Below, piece after piece: positions 1 to 14,582 of a stretch of 14,582 nt of DNA; position 1 is the stretch's first letter, and the number at the start of each line of letters is the position of its first letter. The notes under the pieces were generated by a model. It was not told where the DNA came from. It saw only the letters and a list, made by a program, of their open reading frames with translations, and made no database searches. This DNA is from a virus (Duplodnaviria > Heunggongvirae > Uroviricota > Caudoviricetes): the IMG/VR virus record IMGVR_UViG_2574180220_000005, one strand, 5' to 3'. The position numbers and the translations under genes are program-made.

Positions 1-1362
1 ATGTTTAAACCGGAACTCCTTTCCCCGGCGGGAACGCTGAAAAATATGCGTTACGCTTTCGCTTATGGCGCAGATGCTGTTTATGCGGGCCAGCCGCGTT
101 ATTCCCTGCGTGTGCGCAACAACGAATTCAACCACGAAAATCTTCAGCTCGGCATCAATGAAGCCCACGCGCTGGGGAAAAAGTTTTATGTCGTGGTCAA
201 CATTGCACCGCACAACGCCAAGCTGAAAACCTTTATCCGTGACCTGAAACCGGTGGTGGAAATGGGGCCGGATGCGCTGATTATGTCCGATCCAGGGCTG
301 ATTATGCTGGTGCGTGAGCACTTCCCTGAAATGCCGATCCACCTTTCGGTGCAGGCTAACGCCGTGAACTGGGCGACGGTGAAATTCTGGCAGCAAATGG
401 GCCTGACCCGCGTGATCCTCTCTCGCGAGCTGTCGCTGGAAGAGATTGAAGAGATCCGCAATCAGGTGCCGGATATGGAGATCGAGATCTTCGTTCACGG
501 CGCGCTGTGCATGGCCTACTCCGGTCGCTGCCTGCTCTCTGGCTATATCAACAAGCGCGACCCGAACCAGGGCACCTGCACCAACGCCTGCCGCTGGGAG
601 TACAACGTCCAGGAAGGGAAAGAAGATGATGTTGGCAACATCGTACACAAGTACGAGCCGATTCCGGTGCAAAATGTTGAGCCGACGCTGGGTATCGGCG
701 CACCAACCGACAAAGTGTTTATGATCGAAGAGGCCCAGCGTCCGGGCGAGTATATGACCGCGTTTGAAGATGAGCACGGCACTTACATCATGAACTCGAA
801 AGATCTGCGCGCCATCGCCCATGTAGAACGCCTGACCAAAATGGGCGTGCATTCGCTGAAAATCGAAGGTCGTACCAAATCTTTCTACTATTGTGCACGC
901 ACCGCACAGGTTTACCGCAAAGCTATCGATGACGCCGCTGCGGGAAAACCGTTCGATACCAGCCTGCTGGAAACTCTGGAAGGTCTGGCGCATCGTGGCT
1001 ATACCGAAGGTTTCCTGCGTCGTCATACTCACGACGATTATCAGAACTACGAATACGGTTATTCAGTTTCTGACCGCCAGCAGTTTGTTGGTGAGTTTAC
1101 CGGTGAGCGCAAGGGGGACCTCGCGGCGGTAGCGGTGAAAAATAAATTCTCCGTTGGCGACAGCCTTGAGCTGATGACGCCGCAAGGCAACATTAATTTT
1201 ACCCTTGAGCACATGGAAAACGCCAAAGGCGAAGCTATGCCGATAGCACCAGGCGATGGTTATACTGTGTGGCTCCCGGTCCCGCAGGATCTTGAGCTCA
1301 ATTACGCGCTGCTGATGCGTAATTTCTCCGGGGAAACCACGCGTAATCCCCACGGTAAGTGA
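1..1362 (+). CDS. yegQ: Peptidase U32-family protein YegQ (also called TrhP), full-length 453 aa
   Basis: ORF 1..1362 with ATG at 1-3 and TGA at 1360-1362; translation (MFKPELLSPAGTLKNMRYAFAYGADAVYAGQPRYSLR...) recognised from memory as E. coli YegQ; no search run. Confidence 0.88.
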   Translation: MFKPELLSPAGTLKNMRYAFAYGADAVYAGQPRYSLRVRNNEFNHENLQLGINEAHALGKKFYVVVNIAPHNAKLKTFIRDLKPVVEMGPDALIMSDPGLIMLVREHFPEMPIHLSVQANAVNWATVKFWQQMGLTRVILSRELSLEEIEEIRNQVPDMEIEIFVHGALCMAYSGRCLLSGYINKRDPNQGTCTNACRWEYNVQEGKEDDVGNIVHKYEPIPVQNVEPTLGIGAPTDKVFMIEEAQRPGEYMTAFEDEHGTYIMNSKDLRAIAHVERLTKMGVHSLKIEGRTKSFYYCARTAQVYRKAIDDAAAGKPFDTSLLETLEGLAHRGYTEGFLRRHTHDDYQNYEYGYSVSDRQQFVGEFTGERKGDLAAVAVKNKFSVGDSLELMTPQGNINFTLEHMENAKGEAMPIAPGDGYTVWLPVPQDLELNYALLMRNFSGETTRNPHGK

Positions 1363-1412: not shown

Positions 1413-1446
1413 TACAGCTGCATTTATTAAGGTTATCATCCGTTTC

Positions 1447-1533
1447 GCTGAAAAACATAACCCATAAAATGCTAGCTGTACCAGGAACCACCTCCTTAGC
1501 CTGTGTAATCTCCCTTACACGGGCTTATTTTTT
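1447..1533 (+). ncRNA. cyaR: CyaR (RyeE) Hfq-dependent small RNA, ~87 nt, ending in an intrinsic terminator hairpin (cccttacacgggcttatttttt)
   Basis: Sequence gctgaaaaacataacccataaaatgctagctgtaccaggaaccacctccttagcctgtgtaatctcccttacacgggcttatttttt matches CyaR as I recall it; location just downstream of yegQ agrees with the E. coli K-12 map; terminal stem-loop plus U-tract visible. Confidence 0.85.
1507..1533. repeat. Prophage attachment-site core, copy 1 (27 bp, AATCTCCCTTACACGGGCTTATTTTTT), overlapping the cyaR terminator; ogr-proximal end of the prophage
   Basis: Exact 27/27 direct repeat with 14079..14105; it is the reverse complement of the 27-nt P2 att core AAAAAATAAGCCCGTGTAAGGGAGATT as I remember it. 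Confidence 0.8.
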
Positions 1534-1597
1534 ACGCACAACAAATTGAAATAAAAGGATTTATTTCTGGTCACGTCCACACATTGACCACATCGAC

Positions 1598-1622
1598 AAA
1601 AAAAGCCCCTCGACTGAGGGGC
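1598..1622 (-). terminator. Rho-independent terminator downstream of ogr (hairpin GCCCCTC-gact-GAGGGGC followed by T7 on the minus strand)
   Basis: Perfect 7-bp stem at 1605-1611 / 1616-1622, and an A-run at 1598-1604 on the plus strand (a U-tract on the minus strand) immediately 3' of the ogr stop at 1636. Confidence 0.7.
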
Positions 1623-1635
1623 TTCCTGTTTCTAA

Positions 1636-1836
1636 TTACATCCACATAATTTGCTGCCCTGACGGCAACGGGTGCGGCCTTACGGCGTGGACTTCTCCCG
1701 GCTTCACGATGTATCGCTGTACCGACTCATAAGTGATGAACGTGGCGCTGCAATTCACGTTCTGACACTGGTGATAACGCTCTTTTGTCGTGTCAGTGAT
1801 ATAGCGACTTGTACGCGCATGTGCGGCATGCTGGCA
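1636..1836 (-). pseudogene. ogr: P2 late-gene activator Ogr, 5'-truncated: start codon and first zinc-finger cysteine lost at a deletion junction
   Basis: Translation ...CQHAAHARTSRYITDTTKERYHQCQNVNCSATFITYESVQRYIVKPGEVHAVRPHPLPSGQQIMWM matches P2 Ogr from its residue 7 onward (from memory). The upstream residues (VTVSASGV) differ and lack the first Cys of the C-X2-C...C-X4-C finger. The only upstream in-frame start is a GTG at 1858-1860. Confidence 0.8.
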
Positions 1837-2662
1837 TACCCCAGAAGCGGAAACCGTCACGGCGAATCAGTGTTGTGACGCCTGACTCGTTAAGCAGGTC
1901 AGCATCGGTGCCGGACTCCTGCAAATCCCAGAATACAGATGCGCTGATGCCGGTAACACCGTTCACCCCGACGTTGGACAGCGTTTTATGCCAGCCCTGC
2001 TCATGGTCTATTTTGGCACGCAGACCCAGCGCACGTGCGGTGGCATACGCGGTGGCGGTGGTACTGGTGACCGTATCCCATGCGAGGAAATCCGGCCAGA
2101 TGACCATCAGCTCACGCTGGCTGAAATTCTGGCGGTAGGCTTTCACCTCAGAAATGGTTTTACAGCCCCATGCGCTGATATACCCGAAAGCGCGCAGCTT
2201 CTGACAGACTGATGCCAGTGCAACAGCCACCTCTTTGGTATCCAGCCCCGGCACACCAAGAATACGCGGTTTAACACCGGTTACCGACTCCGCCGCCAGC
2301 AGGGCTTTCAGTCCGGTGTACTGACCGTTTTCGTCGGTGGTTCCGATGATATTGGAAACAGTCTGCGCGAGTTTCGTTTCTTCGTCTTCGCCGGTGCCGT
2401 CTTCCACGCGCACGACAACGGTGACCGGTTTTGACTGGTCGGCGATGGCCTGCAACGATGCCGCCAGCGTGCCTTTTTTACCGGCCTTTGCAATTGCGCT
2501 CTGCACATTGGTAATCAGCACCGGTTTATTGAGGGGGAAGATTTCCGCATCCGCATCGCTGGCCGTGCAGACCATGCCGACAATGGCAGTGGATACGGTG
2601 GAAATGACGCGGGTGCCGTCGTTAATCTCCAGCACCTGCACGCCGTGATGATAGTCACTCAT
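1837..2662 (-). pseudogene. FI: P2 tail sheath gene FI, N-terminal ~275 codons only, fused out of frame to the ogr remnant (the fusion ORF runs 1793..2662)
   Basis: ORF starts at ATG 2660-2662 with a GGAG Shine-Dalgarno; translation MSDYHHGVQVLEINDGTRVISTVSTAIVGMVCTASDADAE... matches P2 gpFI (from memory) up to ...RRDGFRFWG, then reads ogr DNA in another frame (MPACRTCAYKSLYH*). P2 FI is ~396 aa, so ~120 C-terminal codons are missing. Confidence 0.85.
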
Positions 2663-2756
2663 CCGTTTAACTCCGTGGTTAATGGGTGCAACTATTTTCT
2701 ATTGGGCAGTGCCTGAGACGCTATTTGACCTGTCTGGTCAGTGGATGAAACAACAG

Positions 2757-2785
2757 ATAAAGAAAAGGCGGGCAATTCGCCCGCC
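2757..2785 (-). terminator. Rho-independent terminator for the minus-strand cargo gene (hairpin GGCGGGC-aattc-GCCCGCC followed by TTTTCTTT on the minus strand)
   Basis: Perfect 7-bp inverted repeat 2767-2773 / 2779-2785 with a T-rich tract on the minus strand (2757-2766), lying ~150 bp 3' of the stop at 2938. Confidence 0.6.
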
Positions 2786-2937
2786 TGTCCTGACTTGCAC
2801 TCACTCATTTTCCAACTGACAATTTACATAGCCCAAACGCTATCAAATCTGACAGCCTGCTGTGAGCGAGGAGCAGACACATGAACCACACACATCATCC
2901 AACCACAGTCACGATAAGTATTATGCACTCTGTATAA

Positions 2938-4551
2938 CTATATTTTACCCGAAAACTCACCAAAATATGGTCTGAGAGCATTTCTCATTGACTCTCCACT
3001 TTCATTATTAGCCATCCTGACCACTAATTCAGCAAGCTGTCCATTAGCCAGCCCCAGATGCTTACTTACTTGGGATGAAAGGCTTTTCCTGTTATAAAGT
3101 TTTAATGCAAGAAGATAATCACGTTTCTCAACTGCATTATTAAACAGAGATAAACTTTCATCATAAAGCTCTTTAACATTAATTTGTGACGTCAACAACT
3201 CAAGAGCTCTACTAAGAGCATCGACCCCTTTTGCTTTTTCATCAAAACAATTAAGCATGAATTTAATTTCGCCAGCCACACGCAGTGAAATCTGAGTATC
3301 CAGCTCTGAGGATATTTTACGGAACACAAAATCTTTAACTGATTGTAGATCTTTATCTGGATTCCTGACTAATCGTTCGCTAACTAAAGTTATAACTTCC
3401 GGAACGCAAAAGAGATTTTCGACTTCAGCCACGCTTAGAGTATAAATACCGTATTCCAGAAGCGATTGAATTTCATTTTCAACACGTCTATCCCTATCAA
3501 TAATACCAAAAACTTCCATATAATGGAGTTTTTCACTGGCTCTTAGAGCTTTAACATTTTGTATTACTTGACTACAAGAACCAGATGGTATCACTAGATA
3601 ACTATTTAACACAGCACGATAAAGGGATACATCATAGCTTCCATTTTCCCCCTCAACAAAAACAATTGGTTTTCTACTACCCAATATTTCAATTAATAAA
3701 CTTTCTGGTAGGCCTTCGACATCGGGAACATCTTCCCAATCCCAACTGGAACCATCATAACTTTTTAACCAGATTTTCTTTGCATCATGCAGTGCTGCAG
3801 CAAAATCAGTATCATGAGTCATATATACAAACAGGCAATCAGGTCGGAGTTTTTCTATATCCTTCCATAATGGAACTTGTACAGATTTGTGAAGATGAAT
3901 TTCAGGCTCGTCTATGACAATAATTCCATTTTCGGGTGCTGCAAGACATTGCCCAATCAGATAGAAAATAACTCGCTCACCGTCGCTCATTTCCGAGGGG
4001 TTATAGACAGCCTCGTTATTTCCTTTTGCTCGTGTTTGAATTGTTAAACCGCCTAAAACAAGCTCTCGGTGAGGTAATGTTTTTTCCCAAATATATTTAA
4101 TTTTATCTAATTTAGTCGTCGTTGGTTCAATTCTTTTTTCTGAAGATTTAACTAATTCAATATATTTCGAGTCTTCTTCAATTTTGTCTGAAAAGAGATA
4201 CACCATTAATTTACCATAATCATTTAATGATGATATGGCAGGGTTACTTCCCCAGCGATAATTCTCTTTATACCAAAGTGGTTCCGACCCTTCCAAATTT
4301 TCAATTCCATAGAGTAAATTATTCTGTGCTTGTTGAAGCGAAGTTGGTGTTGTATGGTCAGGCATCGCTAAAGCCCGCTGAGCGGAAATACGATGAACAA
4401 TATTTCTTTGAGGAGATTTTAGATCCATCCATGTCCCAAGGCGAGACTTTCCAGAGCCATTCGCACCGATAATAAGCACGCTCTGATTAGTCTCTATTTC
4501 CGCTAGGTCTTTTTCTTTTGTAGGTAGTGTAATTGAAAATGAATTGCTCAT
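2938..4551 (-). CDS. Cargo gene 1: 537-aa ABC-type ATPase fused to a TOPRIM/DUF4435-like domain and a helical C-terminal tail (OLD-family or PARIS-like single-polypeptide candidate defence nuclease)
   Basis: Intact ORF with a strong RBS (AAGGAGGG before ATG 4549-4551). Walker A GANGSGKS (aa 29-36, nt 4444-4467), ABC signature-like SDGER (aa 189-193), Walker B IIVIDEPE (aa 210-217), H-loop YMTHD (aa ~246). TOPRIM-like Glu in PIVFVEGE (E300, nt 3652-3654) and DxD in GIIDRDRR (D352/D354, nt 3490-3498). Lower G+C than flanking P2 genes by eye. Sits between FI and G, the P2 Z/fun hotspot position. Confidence 0.6.
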   Translation of the reverse strand: MSNSFSITLPTKEKDLAEIETNQSVLIIGANGSGKSRLGTWMDLKSPQRNIVHRISAQRALAMPDHTTPTSLQQAQNNLLYGIENLEGSEPLWYKENYRWGSNPAISSLNDYGKLMVYLFSDKIEEDSKYIELVKSSEKRIEPTTTKLDKIKYIWEKTLPHRELVLGGLTIQTRAKGNNEAVYNPSEMSDGERVIFYLIGQCLAAPENGIIVIDEPEIHLHKSVQVPLWKDIEKLRPDCLFVYMTHDTDFAAALHDAKKIWLKSYDGSSWDWEDVPDVEGLPESLLIEILGSRKPIVFVEGENGSYDVSLYRAVLNSYLVIPSGSCSQVIQNVKALRASEKLHYMEVFGIIDRDRRVENEIQSLLEYGIYTLSVAEVENLFCVPEVITLVSERLVRNPDKDLQSVKDFVFRKISSELDTQISLRVAGEIKFMLNCFDEKAKGVDALSRALELLTSQINVKELYDESLSLFNNAVEKRDYLLALKLYNRKSLSSQVSKHLGLANGQLAELVVRMANNESGESMRNALRPYFGEFSGKI

Positions 4552-4813
4552 TTTTTGCCCTCCTTGTTCGCATGGAGTTTAATTAAAACTCAACATCTTA
4601 TTAGATACAACTATTCTTCTTATCAGCTCACAATTCCCTGAAGGTAACTTTTGGTTGCATCTTTAGCAAGATGTTAATATAAGGTAGTTTCATGATAATC
4701 ATATCCAATAGTGATAGAACATTAAAGTATCCGCTCCTGGCACAGAGCGTACTGTCAGATTAGGCTTAACTCTGTGCCATAGATACGTTTGCTCACTCCA
4801 GAGATCATACAAC

Positions 4814-5341
4814 TTATTGCGGCATTTCCGGCCATTCAGGATTTGCAGGATCCACACGACTGACCAGAACGCTGTAACGCTCCCATGCATCCAGTCGGCT
4901 ACGCTCCTCATCTGTTGCCATGTTCAGTCTGACAGCGCGATCCAGCGGCAAAATCACGGATTCAGCATCTGCAAGAAGTCTGGCTTTCCGGTTTTCTGCC
5001 TGCTGCTGCAATTCCTCTGCCGTATAAATGCGTTTAATCACTTTGCCGTCCTTAAACATCCAGTTCCCTGAAATGTCCGCCCGTCGGTTAGCAGTAATAT
5101 CCGCCACTTCAACAACACTTAATCCATCCGGTCTGATAGCTGTCACATCCTTTTCCACATAGCGGATGATATTATCTTTGTCGTACGCTATTTTTAGCGT
5201 GTCATCAGCAAAATACTTTTGTTCTTCGTACCAGTTCTTACCATCTTCTGAAAAAAACCAGACAACATCAAAGTCTTTTGTCAATTGATATTGTTCAACC
5301 GTTTTTGGATTACCTGCCGTTATATTTATCAAATGCTGCAT
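4814..5341 (-). CDS. G: P2-type tail fiber assembly protein gpG, 175 aa, intact
   Basis: Translation [40 protein letters not shown]...[14 protein letters not shown] is the same length as, and closely resembles, P2 gpG (from memory). Confidence 0.8.
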
Positions 5342-5344
5342 AAA

Positions 5345-5590
5345 TTATACCTGCGCCACGTTATACCAAGTCCCGTTAATGTATTTCTGCACCGGTCTGT
5401 AATATACGCCACCAATGTTATCGGCAGAGTTTGAGCCGGTATCCTGAACAATAATGCCGGAATATACACACCCGGACGGTGCCTGATGTGTCCATGTCAT
5501 ACCATTGTTCGCAGGTTTGTATGTGGCAGCACCACCAAGCCGGATATCCCGGACATAGCGTGAATCAAAGTTGCCATAGTTAGATGGTGA
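5345..5590 (-). pseudogene. H: Tail fiber gene H, C-terminal ~80 codons only
   Basis: Minus-strand frame ending at TAA (plus-strand 5345-5347) encodes ...NYGNFDSRYVRDIRLGGAATYKPANNGMTWTHQAPSGCVYSGIIVQDTGSNSADNIGGVYYRPVQKYINGTWYNVAQV, a P2-like tail fiber C-terminus. There is no start codon, and it abuts the J fragment in a different frame. Confidence 0.55.
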
Positions 5591-5726
5591 TACGGGCGAC
5601 CGCCTCCTGCTGGTCTTCCGGGTAAAGGGAAATCAGTGTCGCCTTGCGTTCGGCAAGAATGGTTTCAAAGTCCAGCTCCTCGACCACATCCGGTGCGGGT
5701 AGCTGGTTCAGGTCGATAATCGGCAT
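5580..5726 (-). pseudogene. J: Baseplate gene J, N-terminal ~45 codons only, ending in a premature stop at the deletion junction
   Basis: ATG at 5724-5726 directly after the W stop; translation MPIIDLNQLPAPDVVEELDFETILAERKATLISLYPEDQQEAVAR matches the P2 gpJ N-terminus (from memory), then ITI and a stop. Confidence 0.7.
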
Positions 5727-5730
5727 GGTT

Positions 5731-6078
5731 TCAACTCACAGGGATGGTTAACGAAAGTGGCTGGCCGGTGTCGTTGTGCTGGCCGGTCAAAGTGACAGTC
5801 ATTCGCCCGTCAAAACTGCGCTCAGTGGTGACGGATGACAGGGTGATGCGGGGTTCCCATTTCAGCACCGCCATGTAACAGGCGACCTTAATCTGCAACT
5901 CAAGCGCCGGGGTCTGCGGCTGGTCAATCATTGACGCCAGCAACGAGCCGTAATCACGACGCATCACCCGTGAGCCGATCGGTGTGCGCAGGATATCGCC
6001 GATACTCTGGCTGATATGCTCAAGGTCAGTGACAGTCAGGCCATCACTGCGATTCATTCCGAGATAACGCGCTGTCAT
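5731..6078 (-). CDS. W: P2 baseplate wedge protein gpW (gp25-like), 115 aa, intact
   Basis: Translation MTARYLGMNRSDGLTVTDLEHISQSIGDILRTPIGSRVMRRDYGSLLASMIDQPQTPALELQIKVACYMAVLKWEPR... matches P2 gpW (from memory). Its start overlaps the stop of the upstream V fragment (ATGA). Confidence 0.85.
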   Translation of the reverse strand: MTARYLGMNRSDGLTVTDLEHISQSIGDILRTPIGSRVMRRDYGSLLASMIDQPQTPALELQIKVACYMAVLKWEPRITLSSVTTERSFDGRMTVTLTGQHNDTGQPLSLTIPVS

Positions 6079-6300
6079 TTTGTCCCCTGTGTCCAGTTGT
6101 CACCTGACTTAACACCACCGTGACCGTGGTCATCCACCTGAACGCCGTTAGAAGTGAATTTCCCGTCGGTATCCGCCGTGGCTGTCTGGAATATGACGTC
6201 AGCGCCACCGACATCACCAGCTCGTTTATGGCTATCCGCAAGACCATGACCAGCAGTGGACGCAGCGCCACCTATGAGGCCAGCCGCAGCGAGGAAGCCA
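6075..6300 (-). pseudogene. V: Baseplate spike gene V, C-terminal fragment (upstream boundary uncertain)
   Basis: The minus-strand frame ends ...GKFTSNGVQVDDHGHGGVKSGDNWTQGTK with a stop overlapping the W start; the His/Gly-rich C-terminus resembles the P2 gpV apex. The expected ~210-aa ORF is absent. Confidence 0.5.
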
Positions 6301-6404
6301 GCCACGCCGACCTCGCCTGGGCGACCATGCACGCCCTGTTAAATGAGCCACTCACCGCCGGTATCAGCACCCCGCTGACATCCACCATTCTGGAGTTTTA
6401 CTGA
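6300..6404 (+). pseudogene. P: Probable 3' remnant of the large terminase gene P (5' boundary uncertain)
   Basis: The plus-strand frame ends ...LAWATMHALLNEPLTAGISTPLTSTILEFY with a stop overlapping the Q start (TGATG), the arrangement expected for the P-Q operon. I cannot confirm the protein match from memory. Confidence 0.35.
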
Positions 6405-7438
6405 TGAGCAAGAAAAAAGGGAAAACACCGCAACCTGCGGCAAAAAAAATGACCGCCAGCGCCCTGAAAATGGAGGCATTCACCTTTGGTGAGCCGGTGC
6501 CGGTACTCGACCGCCGTGACATTCTAGATTACGTCGAGTGCATCAGTAACGGCAGATGGTATGAGCCGCCGGTCAGCTTTACCGGTCTGGCAAAAAGCCT
6601 GCGTGCTGCCGTACATCACAGCTCACCGATTTACGTCAAACGTAATATTCTGGCCTCGACATTTATCCCGCATCCGTGGCTTTCCCAGCAGGATTTCAGC
6701 CGCTTTGTGCTGGATTTTCTGGTGTTCGGTAATGCGTTTCTGGAAAAGCGTTACAGCACTACCGGTAAGGTCATCAGACTGGAAACCTCACCGGCAAAAT
6801 ATACCCGCCGTGGCGTGGAGGAGGATGTTTACTGGTGGGTGCCGTCCTTCAACGAGCCGACAGCCTTCGCGCCCGGTTCCGTGTTTCACCTGCTGGAGCC
6901 CGATATTAATCAGGAGCTGTACGGCCTGCCGGAATATCTCAGCGCCCTTAACTCTGCCTGGCTGAATGAATCGGCCACGCTGTTCCGCCGCAAGTATTAC
7001 GAAAACGGCGCACATGCCGGATACATCATGTACGTCACCGATGCCGTGCAGGATCGCAACGATATCGAAATGCTTCGCGAAAACATGGTGAAGTCGAAAG
7101 GCCGCAACAACTTTAAAAATCTGTTTCTCTATGCCCCGCAGGGGAAAGCCGACGGCATTAAAATTATCCCGCTCAGTGAAGTGGCAACGAAGGACGATTT
7201 TTTTAATATCAAAAAAGTCAGCGCCGCTGACCTGCTGGACGCACACCGCATCCCCTTTCAGTTGATGGGCGGCAAGCCGGAGAACGTCGGGTCACTGGGA
7301 GATATTGAGAAAGTGGCAAAGGTCTTTGTCCGCAATGAGCTTATCCCGTTACAGGACAGGATCCGCGAGATAAACGGCTGGCTCGGTCAGGAGGTCATCC
7401 GCTTTAAAAACTACTCACTGGACACTGACAACGGCTGA
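6404..7438 (+). CDS. Q: P2 portal protein gpQ, 344 aa, intact
   Basis: Translation MSKKKGKTPQPAAKKMTASALKMEAFTFGEPVPVLDRRDILDYVECISNGRWYEPP... matches P2 gpQ in sequence and length (from memory). Confidence 0.9.
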   Translation: MSKKKGKTPQPAAKKMTASALKMEAFTFGEPVPVLDRRDILDYVECISNGRWYEPPVSFTGLAKSLRAAVHHSSPIYVKRNILASTFIPHPWLSQQDFSRFVLDFLVFGNAFLEKRYSTTGKVIRLETSPAKYTRRGVEEDVYWWVPSFNEPTAFAPGSVFHLLEPDINQELYGLPEYLSALNSAWLNESATLFRRKYYENGAHAGYIMYVTDAVQDRNDIEMLRENMVKSKGRNNFKNLFLYAPQGKADGIKIIPLSEVATKDDFFNIKKVSAADLLDAHRIPFQLMGGKPENVGSLGDIEKVAKVFVRNELIPLQDRIREINGWLGQEVIRFKNYSLDTDNG

Positions 7439-7443
7439 ACATC

Positions 7444-7465
7444 GCCGCCTGCGGGCGGCTTTTTT
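7444..7465 (+). terminator. Rho-independent terminator after Q (GCCGCC-tgcg-GGCGGC followed by TTTTTT)
   Basis: 6-bp GC stem at 7444-7449 / 7454-7459 followed by a T6 tract at 7460-7465, immediately 3' of the Q stop. Confidence 0.75.
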
Positions 7466-7607
7466 ACAACCCGCCATCACGCCCTCACACGCTCACCACC
7501 GCACAAAACAGCCCGCATACACACCAACGCCCCGGCGCACAATCTAAACGCCATCACGACGCGCTCAGACGCTGAAAAAATAAAATCAGCACCCCCGCCA
7601 GCGCGCA

Positions 7608-7626
7608 GTGCTTTCCCCGCCTCGCC
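7608..7626. other. P2 cos cohesive-end sequence (19 nt), within the cos region between Q and cargo gene 2
   Basis: GTGCTTTCCCCGCCTCGCC is the exact reverse complement of the P2 19-nt cohesive end GGCGAGGCGGGGAAAGCAC as I recall it; located where cos is expected, next to Q. Confidence 0.7.
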
Positions 7627-7941
7627 CGCCCGCTTCATGGGGCGGTTTTAATGCAGTTGCATGATGAAACTGAAATCACATCAGCACTGACCGAAACTGA
7701 CAAAAAGAATAGTATCTGACACATGCAAAAACACGCACTTAATATACGCCTATCTATAGCTCCTACAGGATTGTCAAAAAACGACCAACTCGTCATAGCG
7801 TAAACACATTTGGCTCAACGAACACTTACGTTATATGCCTCTTGAACATATCAAAGTCTTAAGGTAGATCTTTACCACTAAGTGGCTATATTAAGCTGCT
7901 TTTTTACATACAATAAAAGCTTTATCGTATGAGGCATAAAA

Positions 7942-10158
7942 ATGGAACTTAGATTAAAAAATGTTACCAGTTATAAGAAAGACGCCTTCACAATACTGAA
8001 TCTTGAAAAAAGAGTAAACATACTATACGGCCAAAATGGTTGTGGCAAATCTACCATTTCAAATTATTTCTACGACTCTACACACACAGATTATAACGAG
8101 TGTGAATGTACCCTTCTTGACAATTACAAACCTCTTGTTTACAACACTAAATTTATTGAAGATAATTTCTACAATGCACAGGAACAAAAAGGTGTTTTTA
8201 CATTAAGTAAAGAAAATGCAGATATTGAAAAACAATTAATTGAAAAAGAAGCAATTAAACAGCAACTCACAGAGCAATATAGACAAAAAAAAGGAGTGTT
8301 ATTGAAATTAGAAGCAGAAATGGAAAAAAAAGAAAATGAATACATCGAATCGATCTGGAAAAAAACAGAACCAATCAGAAACTCTGTACTAAAAACCTTA
8401 ATGAAAGGTAAAGTTGGCTATAAAAGACCTTTTTTTGAGATGATAAAATCATCCTCACCAATCACCTTTATTAATTTAAATGATATAGCAAAAGAATACT
8501 CTATACTATTAGAAAATAGAAACAATGAAACCGCATTAATAACTCCTTTACATCCATATATCCCATCAATTGATGATGTAAATACATTAGCAACACCTAT
8601 AATAGATACAAGCAATAGCTATTTATCAGAAACCATTAATAAACTTCATAATCTTGACTGGGTAAAAAAAGGTAAAGAACATTATTTAGACGGTTCTACA
8701 TGTCCGTTTTGTCAGGAAAAAACTATTAGTCACGAATTTTTAAATGCCCTTAAATCAATATTTGACGAAAGTTATTCAAAGAAAGTAAAACAGCTCTCAG
8801 ATATAAAGTCAGTTTATGAGAAAAATACTATATATCATTTTAACGAAATACAAAACAATATATCATCATGTGCACTAATCAATGAGAAAGATAAAGAGAA
8901 CATTATTTCCAATATTAAAATATTGCAAAACATTGCAGAAAAAAATTTAATAAACATTATTGATAAGATCAACAATCCATCAACATGCGTTACATTAGAA
9001 ATTGATAAAGAACTAGAAAATCATGTTCAGGAAAGCATAGGCGCTGTTAACAAGAAAATAAGAGACATAAATGATAAGGTTAAAAAACTCAAAGAGTATG
9101 AGAATAAAATCGGAAAACAAGTTTGGGGGGCTCTCCATGCTTTTTGCAGCGATGATTTAGAGAATTTATCCAAACACAAAGAAAAATTCTTTGATATCAA
9201 AAAGAAAGTTCATGATGAATTAAATAATATTGAGCAACAAGGAAAAGAAAATAATCTCACAATAAAAGCATTGCGAGATAAAATATCTAACATTGATTCT
9301 ACGATAGACTCAATAAACACCCATTTAAAAAATCTAGGGATCTCTGGTTTTTGTATTGAAAAACATGCAGAAAGAAAAGATATGTACATTATATCTCGAC
9401 CAGGGCATACAAAAAACCAAAATGTTTATAGATCTCTTAGCGAAGGTGAAAAAACACTAATAACGTTTCTTTATTTTTTAGAGTGCTGTAAAGGTAAAAC
9501 CGATAAAAATGATACCGATAGCAGGGATATTTTTATTGTTATTGACGATCCAATATCTAGTCTATCGCAAAACTATGTCTACGACATCGCATCAATTATT
9601 CATCACCACATTATAAAAAATGAATTAACAAAGAAGGTATTAATCCTTACTCACAATCTTTATTTCTTTCATGAACTTATTAAGCTATCTCCTAAAAGCA
9701 GAGAAGACAAACTATTTAAGAAAAACTATTATCTAGGTAGAGTAACGAAAAATGATTTTAGTATAATTACTGAAATACAAAAAAACAGCATACAGAATGA
9801 ATATCAATCTTTGTGGCAAATATTAAAAGATGCAAAAGATGGCAAAGCAAACAAAATCATAATACCGAATATTATGAGAAACATACTAGAATATTATTTT
9901 GCATTTGTTCATAGAACAGATGCTCTACAAGATGAATTAACAAAGTTGGCACGCGACGATAGCAACAGTGATTTCAAAGCATTCTACAGATACATTAACA
10001 GAGGTTCTCACTCTGATGCGGTAAATATTACTGATATGGGCGACATAGACCCAGATAAATACCTAAAACAATTGAGAACAATATTTTCAGCTACTGGTGA
10101 CGAAATGCATTATTTAAAAATGATGGACGAACTAGAAGAGGAGAACGTTACCGCTTAG
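7942..10158 (+). CDS. Cargo gene 2: 738-aa AAA_13-type ABC ATPase with a long coiled-coil insert, a CxxC zinc-hook-like motif and a C-terminal putative RNase domain (RloC/PrrC-like anticodon-nuclease candidate)
   Basis: Intact ORF with GAGG ~8 nt before the ATG. Walker A GQNGCGKST (aa 30-38, nt 8029-8055); ~450-aa helical, Lys/Glu-rich insert; CPFC at aa 254-257 (nt 8701-8712); ABC signature LSEGEK (aa 498-503); Walker B IFIVIDD (aa 530-536, nt 9529-9549); H-loop LILTHN (aa ~571). C-terminal ~160 aa carry R-x3-E (RNILE, aa 646-650) and R-x6-H (RYINRGSH, aa 683-690). About 30% G+C by rough hand count of a 70-nt sample, against roughly 50% for the backbone. Sits between cos and A, the P2 tin/old hotspot position. 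Confidence 0.55.
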   Translation: MELRLKNVTSYKKDAFTILNLEKRVNILYGQNGCGKSTISNYFYDSTHTDYNECECTLLDNYKPLVYNTKFIEDNFYNAQEQKGVFTLSKENADIEKQLIEKEAIKQQLTEQYRQKKGVLLKLEAEMEKKENEYIESIWKKTEPIRNSVLKTLMKGKVGYKRPFFEMIKSSSPITFINLNDIAKEYSILLENRNNETALITPLHPYIPSIDDVNTLATPIIDTSNSYLSETINKLHNLDWVKKGKEHYLDGSTCPFCQEKTISHEFLNALKSIFDESYSKKVKQLSDIKSVYEKNTIYHFNEIQNNISSCALINEKDKENIISNIKILQNIAEKNLINIIDKINNPSTCVTLEIDKELENHVQESIGAVNKKIRDINDKVKKLKEYENKIGKQVWGALHAFCSDDLENLSKHKEKFFDIKKKVHDELNNIEQQGKENNLTIKALRDKISNIDSTIDSINTHLKNLGISGFCIEKHAERKDMYIISRPGHTKNQNVYRSLSEGEKTLITFLYFLECCKGKTDKNDTDSRDIFIVIDDPISSLSQNYVYDIASIIHHHIIKNELTKKVLILTHNLYFFHELIKLSPKSREDKLFKKNYYLGRVTKNDFSIITEIQKNSIQNEYQSLWQILKDAKDGKANKIIIPNIMRNILEYYFAFVHRTDALQDELTKLARDDSNSDFKAFYRYINRGSHSDAVNITDMGDIDPDKYLKQLRTIFSATGDEMHYLKMMDELEEENVTA

Positions 10159-10186
10159 GCCGCATATTATCGTTTTGGGTAAGAAC

Positions 10187-10206
10187 GACGGTGCTTACGC
10201 ACCGTC
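10187..10206. terminator. Hairpin between the convergent cargo gene 2 and A (GACGGTGC-ttac-GCACCGTC); possible terminator or structured element, no U-tract
   Basis: Perfect 8-bp stem with a 4-nt loop, read by eye; no flanking T-run on either strand. Confidence 0.3.
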
Positions 10207-10381
10207 TCCCAACGCCCAAAGCGGTAGCGGTTGTACTGGCGTACATTCACTAGCTTTAACATGAGGCAATCTCCATGCCAGCACTATTGTTGCCAATAGC
10301 AGCCTTTATACCCTTTGTACAAAGCTAATACCAAGAGTAATGCAAAGTAGATGTCCCAAGCGGTAACGGGGCTATTCTATG

Positions 10382-12673
10382 TCAAACACAGAAAAAATCA
10401 AAGCGCCCTATGAATCCCCCCCAACCATCAGCGACCGGATACGTGAATTTTTTCCCGTCATAATTTACGGTCGCTCCACGCGCCAGCGCCTCAAGCTCCC
10501 ATCGCTGCGGCATGATACCGTTCTGAGCAAGGTCAACGCGGATACGGGTGATTTGCAATCGTTCAGACCTGGTCAGTCTGGCAGATGGTGCAATTTCATG
10601 CGGTTTTAACGGGCTTCCGTTTCTTTGCTGACGGTTTGGCGTTCTCAGGTCGTATTTTAATGCGCCCCTGAGCGCCCTCACGACCTCCGGTTCATTCCAT
10701 TCAATAACACCGTCATCAACCAGATTAAGCACTGCTGCGGCGTGCTCAGAAGGTGTGGGAGCCGGTAACGAAGTATCACCACCGGTGAGCTTTCCACAGT
10801 TATTGACAGGACTCCGAGGCGCGGCGATGCCGCTTTTTAAAGTCAGAGGCTCAACGACCGGAACTTTCGGCACAATGCGCCAGTCCGTCGTTCTGGTGAT
10901 ATGAATATGACGCGCGCCGAGATGCGGCGCGTAAATGCCGACCACTCTCTCGACTTCTTCCTCGTACTCGTTAACTTCATCCGACGGACTACGGGCGACC
11001 CTGACAGTCTGACAATCGCGCGGGACATTTGCCCCACCCTGCGCGCTGATATACAACGCAAAATCACCACTGTCTGCGGCGGCGCGTGCAGCCTCGACGC
11101 GCTCGTCAAACTCATCAGCAATGCTGACGCCGCGAGGCAATTTGCGTAGTTCACGGTAAGCCCCCATTGTCGGCAGACCAACCGTTTTAAATTGTGGGAT
11201 GCGCCACGTTGACGCCCATGCGGTAACAGCCGCAGCAGTGTCTTTCAGCGGTCTGCCGGTATCGTTATCGAGCTGACCATCCAGTGCATAGCCATCGATG
11301 TTTTTTGAGATGTATTTCGCGATATACCCCGCAGCACCGCCCTGGTTAAGGTGTTTTGCCTGAAAACGGTTTCGCGCGGCTCCTCTTTCGTCGCCATCCT
11401 CTTTGAGCGCATAGCGACGCATGATTTCGATAATCTGGTTACGCTGGCGTGGATTACAAAAAAGCATCATATGCCAGTGCGGCGTTCCGTCGTGGTGTGG
11501 CTCGACGACACGCAAACCGTAGACCTGTAAATCATTATCTTTGAATGCCGTGCGCATCAGGCTCCAGATATGGCAGAGATAACGCTGCGCATCCTTTGGA
11601 TTAAATGCCTCATCGTTCCAGCCGTGATTTAGCTGGACGGTTTTACTTTCGCCTTTTCCGACCTGACGTGTCGGGTGATACTTTGAAGGCGCGGTAAGCG
11701 TGATAAACATCCCCACATCACCCTCTGCGGCGGCGTAACGCTCAATACCGGCAATGGTGTTCATCAGCTCCATCCGGCGAATTTCAGGATTAGAAATACT
11801 GCCCATCACCTTACTGATAAGGTCGATGCGCTCGCCGGTTTCCCTGTTTTCAAGGTCACACGATTTAAGAAATTCCAGATTTGCCTGGCGGCGTGCACGC
11901 ACATCACGAATGGCATGTTTACTGGCATAAGGAGAACGGTCTTTATTCACCTCCCCGACAGCAATCAGTAACGCCTCATGCCAGCGCATACGCTGGCCTT
12001 TGAGCTGATGAGTCCACCACTCATCGTTAAACAGACGGGCAATGGCAGAATATGCCTGCCTCGTGGTCATCTGTCCTTTACGGTATTTTTTCCAGTAAAG
12101 CGGGGAAATATTGAAAGCACGTGCAGCGCCAGCAACATGACCATAGAGGTGAGCCTGCGCCTCATCCGTAAACAGCGATTCTTTTTCGCCATGTGCATCC
12201 ACCCAGGCATCGCTGAGTTCCTCATACATCATGAAAAGCTGCGATGAGATACGGGCGGCAAACTTTTTCAGCTCCTTGTCATTCATTCCCGGCAGGCGCG
12301 CATAGTGGTCACGCTCTGCCAGAAACAGCAACGACGCGTCGGTGTTCATTTCATGGCGCTGATTCACACGCTCAATGCGCGGCCATAAACGACGCTGAAA
12401 AGTGGATGTGAGGAAATAAAACCCGTGCACCGGGCTTTTATTGCGCCGGATGTAGTCATAGCGTGAAGTAAACAGCGAGCGCAAAAAGTAAGGCAGGCGG
12501 TTAATCGTGGATAAAACACCTTGCATCTGACGCATCTCGTCACGTGTAAGGGGTCTTTCGCGCCCGACGGCCTCGCGTGGCGCGTTCCATGCATAAGCAC
12601 CGGTAAACATCTTACCGGTGCCTGCGGCAAATGCTGACGGAGGGACAAAACGCCCGGAGGCTTTAACGGCCAT
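10382..12673 (-). CDS. A: P2 replication initiation protein gpA (rolling-circle Rep of the HUH superfamily), intact; the ORF track's upstream Met at 12715 is an alternative start
   Basis: Translation from MAVKASGRFVPPSAFAAGTGKMFTGAYAWNAPREAV... matches P2 gpA (from memory). HUH motif PHWHMML and paired active-site tyrosines GYIAKYISK are present. The P2 origin is known to lie inside the A coding sequence (established knowledge; not located here). Confidence 0.88.
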   Translation of the reverse strand: MAVKASGRFVPPSAFAAGTGKMFTGAYAWNAPREAVGRERPLTRDEMRQMQGVLSTINRLPYFLRSLFTSRYDYIRRNKSPVHGFYFLTSTFQRRLWPRIERVNQRHEMNTDASLLFLAERDHYARLPGMNDKELKKFAARISSQLFMMYEELSDAWVDAHGEKESLFTDEAQAHLYGHVAGAARAFNISPLYWKKYRKGQMTTRQAYSAIARLFNDEWWTHQLKGQRMRWHEALLIAVGEVNKDRSPYASKHAIRDVRARRQANLEFLKSCDLENRETGERIDLISKVMGSISNPEIRRMELMNTIAGIERYAAAEGDVGMFITLTAPSKYHPTRQVGKGESKTVQLNHGWNDEAFNPKDAQRYLCHIWSLMRTAFKDNDLQVYGLRVVEPHHDGTPHWHMMLFCNPRQRNQIIEIMRRYALKEDGDERGAARNRFQAKHLNQGGAAGYIAKYISKNIDGYALDGQLDNDTGRPLKDTAAAVTAWASTWRIPQFKTVGLPTMGAYRELRKLPRGVSIADEFDERVEAARAAADSGDFALYISAQGGANVPRDCQTVRVARSPSDEVNEYEEEVERVVGIYAPHLGARHIHITRTTDWRIVPKVPVVEPLTLKSGIAAPRSPVNNCGKLTGGDTSLPAPTPSEHAAAVLNLVDDGVIEWNEPEVVRALRGALKYDLRTPNRQQRNGSPLKPHEIAPSARLTRSERLQITRIRVDLAQNGIMPQRWELEALARGATVNYDGKKFTYPVADGWGGFIGRFDFFCV

Positions 12674-12938
12674 ATGAGCCAAAAGCCTCTGAACAACGCT
12701 TGCTGAGTTGCTCAACCTGCACGTTTAAATCAGCAAAAGACTTTGCGCTTCCGGTCAGAATATCGTGATGCATCAGGCCTGAAACGAGCTGGCTTAATTT
12801 CGGGTAATAACCAACCACCGCCAGCCATTCCTGACCGGCGTTTTTACCGCTTTCCGCTCTCTTTTTCTCGTGGAGAATAAACTGAAAGCTGTCACTGGTA
12901 ACGACATAACGTTCGCCAATTTCAATACGAATACTCAT
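12663..12938 (-). CDS. Small early-operon protein immediately upstream of A (P2 orf83-like; name uncertain), 91 aa
   Basis: ORF with a GGAG RBS, ending 11 nt into A in another frame; its start overlaps the stop of the upstream remnant (ATGA). Synteny with the P2 orf80-83/A block; identity not verified. Confidence 0.55.
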   Translation of the reverse strand: MSIRIEIGERYVVTSDSFQFILHEKKRAESGKNAGQEWLAVVGYYPKLSQLVSGLMHHDILTGSAKSFADLNVQVEQLSKRCSEAFGSYGR

Positions 12939-13027
12939 GCCGTTCTCCGGTAATGTTTGTTTTTTGCTTCAAAGACTGACTGACAGGAAACACAACGCGT
13001 GGCTGACGGGTAAGCCGCACGACGGGC
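12935..13027 (-). pseudogene. 3' remnant (~30 codons) of the gene preceding the orf83-like gene (P2 orf82-like?), truncated at the int junction
   Basis: The minus-strand frame ends ...PSATRCVSCQSVFEAKNKHYRRTA with TGA overlapping the ATG of the next gene; further upstream the same strand is antisense to int. Confidence 0.3.
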
Positions 13028-13999
13028 ATCCGCCCTACTGGACGTAATGGAAAACGCATCCGTAGGAAGTTTGATAAGAAAAGCGAAGCTGTCGCTTTCG
13101 AGAAATACACGTTGTACAACCACCACAATAAAGAATGGCTATCAAAACCAACAGACAAGCGACGTCTGTCGGAGCTGACACAGATCTGGTGGGATTTAAA
13201 GGGTAAACACGAAGAGAATGGGAAATCTAATCTTGGAAAAATTGAAATCTTCACAAAAATAACGAATGACCCATGCGCATTTCAAATTACGAAATCGCTT
13301 ATCAGCCAGTACTGCGCCACCCGAAGAAGTCAGGGTATTAAACCTTCGAGTATCAATCGTGATTTAACATGTATTAGCGGCATGTTTACAGCCCTGATTG
13401 AAGCGGAGTTATTCTTTGGTGAGCACCCTATCAGAGGGACAAAAAGGCTTAAGGAGGAAAAACCAGAAACAGGCTATCTAACACAGGAAGAAATTGCCTT
13501 ACTGCTTGCAGCACTTGACGGCGACAATAAAAAGATTGCGATTCTTTGCCTGAGTACAGGAGCACGTTGGGGAGAAGCAGCTCGTTTGAAAGCAGAAAAT
13601 ATCATCCATAACCGCGTCACGTTTGTTAAAACGAAAACAAACAAACCACGCACCGTCCCGATCTCAGAGGCTGTTGCCAAAATGATCGCGGATAACAAAC
13701 GAGGTTTTTTATTCCCTGATGCTGATTACCCTCGCTTCAGACGAACAATGAAAGCAATAAAACCGGATTTGCCAATGGGGCAAGCCACACATGCACTAAG
13801 GCACAGCTTTGCCACTCATTTCATGATTAATGGAGGAAGTATTATCACGCTACAACGGATACTAGGTCACACGCGGATTGAGCAAACTATGGTTTACGCT
13901 CATTTTGCGCCAGAGTACCTTCAGGACGCCATTTCTCTTAATCCGCTAAGAGGTGGTACTGAGGCCGAGAGTGTCCACACAGTGTCCACAGTAGAGTAA
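13028..13999 (+). pseudogene. int: P2 integrase (tyrosine recombinase), missing ~14 N-terminal codons and its ATG; catalytic domain intact
   Basis: The frame reads IRPTGRNGKRIRRKFDKKSEAVAFEKYTLYNHHNKEWL... to ...TEAESVHTVSTVE, matching P2 Int from about residue 15 (from memory). An in-frame TGA at 13004-13006 leaves no ATG or GTG before the match; the first candidate start is the TTG at 13112 used by the ORF track. Catalytic-site motifs ARWGEAARLK, HALRHSFATH and GHTRIEQTMVYAHF are present. Confidence 0.8.
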
Positions 14000-14078
14000 C
14001 GTTTAAGGGCTTTCAGTGGTAATTTATGCCGCTCAAACCCGCATTGTACCGTTGAAAGCCCCTACTGGTGACACCCTA

Positions 14079-14105
14079 AATCTCCCTTACACGGGCTTAT
14101 TTTTT
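14079..14105. repeat. Prophage attachment-site core, copy 2 (27 bp), int-proximal end
   Basis: Exact direct repeat of 1507..1533, lying ~80 bp downstream of the int stop. Confidence 0.8.
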
Positions 14106-14264: not shown

Positions 14265-14582
14265 TCACTCTCCACATTTGAATGTCAGACGAGCGACGCC
14301 ATGTAATCCTGCACCTTCTGTCTTCAGGTCAACTATCTGCATTTTTTTGCCCTGAGTAACACAGAAATGGGCTGCATCATTTTTTACTATATTTTCTGCA
14401 CCAGATATTCTGCCCCTGGCTAAAGAAGCTTCGGCTTCGGTGTAGTATTGATTATCGAGTTTACGCTGAATATTACTTTTATATGCAAGACCAAATTTAC
14501 CGATACTTGTCTCATCATTATGCACAGCACAACCAGACATAATAAAAATACTAATTAATGATATAGCAGCTATCTTTTTCAT
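14265..14582 (-). CDS. yegR: Putative lipoprotein YegR, 105 aa (signal peptide MKKIAAISLISIFIMSGC with lipobox Cys)
   Basis: ORF with ATG at 14580-14582 (rc) and stop at 14265-14267; same length and neighbourhood as E. coli yegR downstream of the cyaR/ogr region; lipoprotein signal evident. Confidence 0.65.
   Translation of the reverse strand: MKKIAAISLISIFIMSGCAVHNDETSIGKFGLAYKSNIQRKLDNQYYTEAEASLARGRISGAENIVKNDAAHFCVTQGKKMQIVDLKTEGAGLHGVARLTFKCGE

Follow-up and report, generated by a model that had tools for sequence, protein, structure and literature searches.

The Z/fun and old/tin positions of phage P2 are defence hotspots (Rousset et al. 2022, PMC9122126; Vassallo et al. 2022, PMC9519451), and a survey of P2 and P4 hotspots has described defective P2 elements in which the mobility genes are pseudogenised and the defence genes are near-identical to those of intact prophages (Nucleic Acids Res 2026, PMC13586616, Fig. 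6C). That survey leaves domestication as an open question. The locus analysed here is a stretch of 14,582 nucleotides (hereafter the window; IMG/VR virus record IMGVR_UViG_2574180220_000005), in which positions 1507-14105 hold a P2-like prophage remnant of 12,599 bp at the cyaR/trhP-yegR site of Escherichia coli. The remnant retains two hotspot cargo genes, encoding a fused, single-protein PARIS (AriAB) and an AAA_13 ATPase. Prophage hotspots are now regarded as a major reservoir of bacterial immunity, and the question at stake is whether immune genes outlive their carrier phage and become host genes. The general domestication of defective prophages is said to have been established by Bobay, Touchon and Rocha in 2014.

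The remnant resembles the 'uncharacteristic genomic regions' with P2 markers reported in PMC13586616, being a defective P2-like prophage with conserved defence genes. In contrast to those cases, it is resolved to the base and comes with its intact parent type, with an intermediate that has three deletions and with cargo frameshifts that arose later; it also lost its DNA by large deletions, whereas the published cases are small intergenic pseudogene traces. A second close relative is PR-X of E. coli K-12 (ogrK and yegZ), a P2 remnant at the identical cyaR-yegR attachment (att) site that likewise starts at the att core inside cyaR and has ogr. However, PR-X measures 629 bp, holds neither hotspot and is far more widespread, being present in 359 of 5,426 complete E. 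coli genomes; it illustrates the late stage of decay at the cyaR site. Intact P2-like prophages (PMC9122126, PMC9519451), including that of E. coli 09-00049, share the backbone and the hotspot positions, and 09-00049 has the same cargo alleles, but the remnant lacks 19.7 kb and all functions required for a phage life cycle in comparison. The prophages of ET881, ZH177, FXCREC035, FDN-9, WCHEC020031, VE-V10-F, 1916D18 and AST46 show a similar multi-deletion decay of the F operon, the V-to-P region and the early region. They differ from the window in their cargo genes, att sites and mostly also breakpoints, and all save FDN-9 keep the hotspots. With regard to the cargo, AriAB unites in one protein the ABC-type ATPase and the DUF4435/TOPRIM-like domain of PARIS (AriA/AriB), and as a fused form it is a putative anti-phage system, the allele of the window carrying K103N relative to the parent. 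Finally, the remnant is unlike a P4-like satellite, as int is truncated, A has no promoter and the open reading frames (ORFs) are all P2 backbone or cargo.

Positions 1507-14105 are best explained as what is left of a P2-like (Peduovirus) prophage of 32.3 kb, a young and immobile remnant that has kept its cargo and represents early decay rather than a proven domesticated island, a reading to which a probability of roughly 70% is assigned. This type of remnant is already known, and the window adds a well-resolved case. What is added are base-level deletion maps, a natural series of intermediates and a first small quantitative test of hotspot sparing, together with cargo inactivation after retention in some descendants and recurrent breakpoints. 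The series, which runs at one site from the intact over the three-deletion and four-deletion to the cargo-frameshift forms, makes the question of domestication experimentally approachable. The finding alone leaves current understanding unchanged; it confirms the reported pattern, with a cargo retention that is biased but temporary.

Four deletions and the sparing of both hotspots

The remnant is delimited by an exact 27-bp direct repeat, AATCTCCCTTACACGGGCTTATTTTTT, which matches the P2 attP core (P2 24356-24382). Between the repeats, BLAST against P2 yields seven collinear blocks. In six of these the identity to P2 is 92-99.8%, and no ORF falls outside the P2 backbone genes, their fragments and the hotspot cargo (Table 1). 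An earlier note, made from the sequence alone, had proposed a cryptic P2-like prophage of about 12.6 kb reduced by at least four deletions. Alignment to P2 and to the prophage of E. coli 09-00049 agrees with this and fixes the number at exactly four. The 09-00049 prophage spans 32,325 bp, occupies the same site, carries the same two cargo genes and is apparently intact, none of its genes being flagged as a pseudogene. The window is 99.9% identical to it (about 0.1% diverged), apart from four gaps that together take 19,726 of the 32,325 bp (61%). Because the junctions show just 2-3 nt of exact microhomology each (in deletion 3, three exact nt within an imperfect 8/10 match), the deletions are attributed to illegitimate recombination.

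The losses named in the earlier note (FII through D, most of H-I-J, the P-to-S block and C-cox-B) each match one of the mapped gaps. All functional modules are struck, with 31 of the 38 parent genes deleted or truncated and seven left whole (AriAB, G, W, Q, the AAA_13 gene, A and orf83). The capsid, terminase, lysis, tail-tube and tape-measure genes are gone, as are the repressor gene C, cox, B and the early promoter. The remnant therefore no longer has the complete gene set of a functional prophage, and autonomous mobility and lytic capacity are predicted to be lost. In contrast, the cis-acting sites are all kept, i.e. both att cores with their arm, IHF and Cox sites, cos, and the ori inside A. 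The parts previously listed as retained are all found in place, with the corrections that G is intact instead of a fragment and that fragments of P and orf82 have to be added. The further proposal that decay is concentrated in genes that could kill the host holds in part: deletion 3 takes the holin, endolysin and spanins along with the capsid genes, but deletions 1 and 2 take other genes and A is intact. The removal of C by deletion 4 together with the early promoter is a safe route to repressor loss.

As the earlier note had also claimed, both cargo genes are untouched, and no deletion enters either gene or the intergenic DNA on its flanks. Under a null model in which four non-overlapping deletions of the observed sizes are placed uniformly at random (simulation with an analytic check), the chance of sparing both cargo coding regions is 0.011 for this window, which was picked post hoc for the pattern. 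Independent cases were then sought with backbone-only queries, each being conditioned on the deletion by which it was found. Five informative, independently decayed elements spare both hotspots (ET881, ZH177, WCHEC020031, VE-V10-F and FXCREC035), with sparing probabilities of 0.073, 0.105, 0.087, 0.52 and 0.25 and a product of 8.6e-5. ET881 (cyaR site) has two deletions, one of about 14.4 kb that reduces the interval between the hotspots to remnants of G (87 nt) and Q (84 nt) and ends about 350 bp from the nearest cargo gene on one side and less than 200 bp on the other. ZH177 (cyaR) has three deletions, WCHEC020031 (fieF-cpxP) four with lysA/B/C persisting, VE-V10-F (fieF-cpxP) two plus an insertion sequence (IS) insertion, and FXCREC035 (cyaR) one plus an IS insertion. 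Both hotspots are likewise kept in AST46 (pflB-pflA) and 1916D18 (fieF-cpxP), with one deletion each, and both are lost in FDN-9 (cyaR) through one 22.6-kb deletion. The bias towards hotspot retention is read as real, of uncertain strength and not permanent.

The cargo genes and the history of the remnant

AriAB matches the PADLOC profile over its full length (residues 3-534) and contains the Pfam domains DUF4435 (75 bits, cutoff 27, 9.9e-21) and AAA_21 (42.5 bits, cutoff 27, 1.1e-10). It differs from the parent allele by one missense change, K103N, and hotspot 1 as a whole is the same as in the parent but for one single-nucleotide polymorphism. A sequence search of the PDB with AriAB gave no match to a solved structure. 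Rousset et al. 2022 (PMC9122126) refer to fused PARIS forms encoded by a single gene. The product of the AAA_13 gene has the parent sequence, matches the profile of the PADLOC candidate system PDC-S06 over its full length and shows a partial PrrC match among the PADLOC profiles in its C-terminal part (residues 490-730, E 9.7e-13), while searches of NCBIfam and of PDB sequences returned no family and no match. This gene is common at the old/tin hotspot of P2-like prophages and apparently experimentally uncharacterised. Of the two presumed defence genes, AriAB is therefore well founded by homology and the AAA_13 gene is a candidate. Other P2-like elements carry other cargo at both positions. The DNA on either side of the cargo genes is unchanged from the intact prophage, so their expression is presumably that of a lysogen; a promoter scan found sites no more numerous than in shuffled controls and was set aside.

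The cross-genome comparison of the cyaR locus that the earlier note had called for recovered the intact parent, three-deletion forms and four-deletion forms. Among the 5,426 complete genomes, the junctions of deletions 2, 3 and 4 occur in one (strain 700481, a closed chromosome) and that of deletion 1 in none. Since 700481 has deletions 2-4 and an intact FI-to-ogr block, deletion 1 was the last event, and the decay took at least two steps, with deletions 2-4 first and deletion 1 later. GCA_029997335.1 is a second three-deletion intermediate (deletions 2-4 without deletion 1). Exact-protein look-up in a public assembly collection found the marker ORF of deletion 1 (289 aa) in 54 blocks, that of deletion 3 (P', 94 aa) in 62 and that of deletion 2 (48 aa, spanning the junction) in 94, and the copies found in this way are all near-identical. 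Dozens of public assemblies from several sequencing projects (NCBI drafts deposited years apart, ENA, and Logan assemblies of public runs) contain the reduced form, and all full copies seen lie at the same cyaR site. Exact-match scans for the junctions of deletions 1 and 3 in metagenome contigs and species-representative genomes gave no match. An assembly or mis-join artefact, in which the deletions would be unreal, has nothing in its favour save the general possibility; identical junctions occur in the closed 700481 chromosome and in dozens of independent NCBI, ENA and Logan assemblies, and this reading was dropped as having next to no probability.

Variant forms indicate that decay and rearrangement are still in progress. 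GCA_049981305.1 (L034) combines deletions 2-4 with a separate FI'-E' deletion of 1,414 bp; identity to the parent is 96.6% in its T-U-D-ogr-trhP arm and 99.4-99.97% elsewhere, which points to a replacement of the left arm by recombination. In CP050215.1 (L032, a 5.98-Mb chromosome), a W-J'/H'-G-AriAB-FI' block with the same junctions of deletions 2 and 3 lies in a scrambled region by rpmE-priA, and the AAA_13 gene is absent from that locus. The block is surrounded by a 186-like int/cI/CP76/Fil module with an AAA_15/DUF4276 pair, a P4-like primase region and a second FI fragment, which suggests an origin from rearrangement between resident prophages. In the ENA metagenome scaffold ERZ28650030 (L027/L035), all four junctions recur and the cargo genes are identical, with patches of 2-4% divergence in FI', W, P', Q, the cos-proximal spacer, A and orf83. 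The scaffold is probably a mixed-strain consensus, the alternative being gene conversion by another P2-like phage, and was left out of the clone comparison.

Retention of the cargo and its explanations

In the preferred reading, that of a young immobile remnant with retained cargo, four separate illegitimate-recombination deletions removed 61% of the prophage in at least two steps. Judged from the gene content, autonomous excision would then be impossible (cox gone, int truncated), as would replication (A without a promoter, B gone), particle building and cell lysis. Two AT-rich cargo modules with their own intergenic control regions stay whole, beside the flanking backbone FI', G, Q, cos and A. 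The cell would thus still express AriAB and possibly a second, AAA_13/PrrC-like defence candidate. AriAB would pair an ABC-type ATPase sensor with a TOPRIM-like DUF4435 nuclease and act by abortive infection upon a phage trigger, and the AAA_13 protein may form a second defence layer. Cargo-clipping deletions are probably disfavoured, or backbone loss favoured, which would account for sparing being commoner than chance in this and in other decayed P2 elements. Selection that retains cargo and selection that removes backbone cannot be separated in these data. Long-term domestication is suggested. The earlier proposal of a domesticated defence island stands with respect to the sparing of both hotspots beyond the random model and falls short with respect to lasting constraint, given the low divergence and the cargo frameshifts.

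Several observations weigh against the preferred reading, and in particular against its domestication component. The remnant is very young, about 0.1% from an intact prophage, and cross-lineage long-term conservation of the same remnant was not found in the complete genomes or in the metagenome and species-representative scans. The haplotypes of the reduced clone have 14 variable sites in the 14.6-kb window, six of which lie in the cargo genes (26% of the length), and these six are four missense changes and two frameshifts with zero synonymous changes, in a small sample and with a look-up that favours the display of protein-changing variants. In AriAB they comprise K103N (the allele of the window), V165G and a 1-nt deletion in a T6 run; the resulting frameshift at window 4080 (L020/L026) occurs in ERR119536, ERR119549 and similar contigs and, being seen in several read sets, is not a sequencing error. 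In the AAA_13 gene they comprise N324K, D605N and a 1-nt deletion in an A6 run, with the frameshift at window 9615 (L019) in GCA_014188295.1. An apparent enrichment of mutations in the cargo (p about 0.004 in the first five haplotypes) fell to about 0.15 (binomial) with more haplotypes and was rejected. The clone haplotypes show no sign of purifying selection, the density of changes in the cargo being not below that of the dead backbone. Cargo retention is temporary, as clone members carry a frameshift in one or the other cargo gene. Furthermore, deletions 1 and 2 remove tail, fibre and baseplate genes only, and the nickase gene A is whole. FDN-9 and K-12 PR-X, both at the cyaR site, are without any hotspot cargo. 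The random-deletion null is crude (uniform endpoints and fixed sizes, where real breakpoints are not uniform), the comparison elements are few and were found through backbone markers adjoining the hotspots, and the window itself was selected post hoc. In addition, no experimental test of PDC-S06 was found in the literature searched.

Purely neutral decay would ascribe the sparing to chance and genome geometry, i.e. three long backbone blocks and two short hotspots, with the cargo next to go. The youth of the remnant fits this, as do a rate of protein-changing and frameshift mutation in the cargo genes that is no lower than in the dead backbone, the loss of both hotspots from FDN-9 and PR-X and the post hoc selection of the finding. 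It is nevertheless considered unlikely, in view of a chance of P = 0.011 for the window itself and of all five other informative elements sparing both hotspots (jointly about 9e-5), and also since the large deletion in ET881 halts so close to the cargo on two sides. Selection could alternatively act against the backbone and not for the cargo, the lysis, structural and regulatory modules being shed as costly or dangerous and the hotspots surviving only through their position between the targets. The V-to-P and F-operon deletions that recur among P2-like prophages, described below, speak for this explanation. However, harmless tail, fibre and baseplate genes are the sole content of two of the four deletions, gene A persists, and so do lysA/B/C in WCHEC020031. 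It also leaves unexplained why deletion ends halt before the cargo on both sides, and it is regarded as distinctly improbable.

It is also conceivable that the remnant is a helper-dependent, mobilisable mini-P2, which a superinfecting P2-like phage excises, replicates and packages, thereby spreading the defence genes. Every cis site is kept, the 12.6 kb come close to the size of P4, and the remnant or parts of it are found next to a left arm of diverged sequence (L034, 96.6%) and within a rearranged locus (L032), so that recombination into other backgrounds does occur. Yet cos, Q and A are kept simply as neighbours of hotspot 2, the promoter of A is deleted here and the A protein of P2 acts in cis. 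Genes for capsid sizing or helper exploitation are absent, no P4-like sid, delta or psu being among the Pfam matches, all full copies seen occupy the same cyaR site, and ordinary chromosomal recombination explains the divergence of L034 equally well. Mobilisation of this kind is thus held to be very improbable.

Retained genes, breakpoints and neighbouring features

The coordinates of the remnant, its deletions and its flanks are collected in Table 1. Comparison with the parent translation shows that the truncated ogr no longer encodes Cys4 of the C4 zinc finger; its own promoter is gone as well. Deletion 1 supplies an in-frame GTG at 1860 in FI-derived DNA, giving a 74-aa ORF (1636-1860, minus strand) that gene callers still name 'Ogr_Delta' despite these losses and that would be transcribed solely from the Ogr-dependent F promoter. 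FI' reads on to a stop at 1793, yielding the 289-aa fusion ORF that marks deletion 1. In int', 13 codons, the start codon and the promoter are missing, and the early promoter Pe of A falls in the DNA lost to deletion 4. RefSeq misnames two of the P2 fragments, H' as 'sugar ABC transporter permease' (L002 13921-14169) and P' as 'oxidoreductase' (L015 32655-33140).

Table 1. Features of the window, deletion junctions, blocks aligned to P2 and recurrent breakpoints; a prime marks a truncated gene.
Feature	Position	Strand	Content or basis
trhP (yegQ), left chromosomal flank	1..1362	+	Pfam Peptidase_U32; 100% identical to 09-00049 flank; annotated trhP in related genomes
cyaR small RNA gene, 3' end overlaps P2 att core	1445..1530	+	Rfam RF00112, 100.7 bits, E 1.4e-19
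attL core, 27 bp	1507..1533		exact repeat of 14079-14105; aligns to P2 24382-24052 (core, IHF, P-arm); Int P-arm and IHF sites kept up to ogr
ogr', 5' end short by 16 nt	1636..1838	-	translation vs parent Ogr; alignment to P2 and 09-00049
FI' (tail sheath), first ~275 codons, about 825 of 1191 nt	1839..2662	-	alignment, translation
Hotspot 1 (Z/fun position, FI-G)	2878..4729		non-P2 DNA, 37-38% G+C; no P2 match between P2 17433 and 15357
Cargo 1, fused AriAB (single-protein PARIS), 537 aa	2938..4551	-	PADLOC AriAB PDLC02982, E 1.7e-186
G (tail fibre assembly), intact	4814..5341	-	protein identical to parent; Pfam Caudo_TAP
H' (tail fibre), 3' 249 nt	5345..5593	-	alignment to L005 (09-00049 locus) 14526-14774
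J' (baseplate), 5' ~135 nt	5594..5726	-	alignment to L005 18151-18286
W (baseplate wedge), intact	5731..6078	-	identical to parent; Pfam GPW_gp25
V', 3' 102 nt	6075..6176	-	alignment to L005 18635-18736
P' (large terminase), 3' ~230 nt	6177..6404	+	alignment to P2 1458-1221, L005 27262-27489
Q (portal), full length, one missense P21L vs parent	6404..7438	+	Pfam, translation vs parent
cos, 19-nt cohesive-end site	7608..7626		aligns to both ends of linear P2 record
Hotspot 2 (old/tin position, cos-A)	7656..10411		non-P2 DNA, 27-30% G+C; no P2 match between P2 33546 and 30295
Cargo 2, AAA_13 ATPase, 738 aa	7942..10158	+	PADLOC candidate PDC-S06 (PDLC04886), E 1.2e-254; Pfam AAA_13 1e-111, 375 bits
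A (replication nickase, contains ori), intact	10382..12673	-	identical 763-aa protein; Pfam Phage_GPA
orf83-like (DUF5405), intact	12663..12938	-	Pfam, translation vs parent
orf82' (TraR/DksA-like), 3' 94 nt	12935..13028	-	alignment to related loci
int', without first 38 nt	13029..13999	+	translation vs parent Int; Pfam Int_N and Phage_integrase
attR core, 27 bp	14079..14105		Cox sites and P' arm kept just inside
yegR, right chromosomal flank	14265..14582	-	annotated in related genomes
Deletion 1, 5,576 bp	1838/1839		ogr 5' 16 nt, D, U, T, E/E', FII, FI 3' end; microhomology TA
Deletion 2, 3,379 bp	5593/5594		most of H, all of I, most of J; microhomology TAC
Deletion 3, 8,525 bp	6176/6177		V 5' part, S, R, lysC/B/A, K, Y, X, L, M, N, O, P 5' part
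Deletion 4, 2,246 bp	13028/13029		orf82 5' part, orf81, orf80, B, orf78, cox, C with Pe/Pc, int 5' 38 nt; microhomology CA
BLAST block att-ogr	1507-1838		vs P2
BLAST block FI'	1837-2877		vs P2
BLAST block G-H'	4730-5399		vs P2, 77% identity
BLAST block J'-W	5591-6078		vs P2
BLAST block P'-Q-cos	6167-7655		vs P2
BLAST block A-orf83-orf82'	10412-13028		vs P2
BLAST block int'-att	13024-14105		vs P2
Recurrent-breakpoint sites	window 6167-6176, 13024-13028; L010 14752-14760; L011 14757-14759; L016 18241-18243; L034 13444-13448		
Recurrent-breakpoint sites, L005 coordinates	18915/6, 27256, 34109-34113, 11459-11477		

Breakpoints from different lineages tend to coincide, four endpoint pairs lying within 4 nt of each other where 0.5 are expected (p 0.003). 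ZH177 and 1916D18 have the V-side endpoint in common, 1916D18 and the window share the P-side endpoint (TA/TCCGCCGTGG), and the left end of deletion 4 is also the right end of the 22.6-kb deletion in FDN-9. In FI, three deletions end at most 18 nt apart. Deletions of about 8 kb from V to P, which remove capsid and lysis genes, occur independently in four P2-like prophages at three att sites. A shared ancestry was considered for three of them and rejected: an independent origin is more likely because their flanks diverge by 2-10% and are at least as close to intact phages as to one another. Int-mediated recombination at pseudo-sites was not adopted either, the likeness of the breakpoints to the att core being barely above background (p 0.037, post hoc). 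A TCCGCC motif, spotted post hoc, lies near several breakpoints at an offset that is not consistent.

An FI fragment is found no more than a few hundred bp from ogr in 75 complete genomes, so that loss of the FII-D tail block is a frequent route of P2 decay; one large group of this kind is found at fieF-cpxP (including WCHEC020031, AMA1167 and KBN10P04869). Tentatively, P2-like decay in E. coli could be stereotyped and shaped by selection, with the F operon, the V-to-P region and the early region lost time and again, in part at recurrent breakpoints, and the hotspots preferentially kept along with att, cos and ori, a generalisation that is itself rather doubtful. If true, it would convert phages into fixed or helper-mobilisable defence islands, and the series at the cyaR site would be a natural time series of that process.

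Upstream of the window, a ParD/ParE toxin-antitoxin pair lies between yegP and trhP (L005 2909-3503; L017 12765-13359). It is present in the carrier clone, 09-00049, 700481, FXCREC035, ZH177 and FDN-9 and absent from this position in K-12 and ET881.

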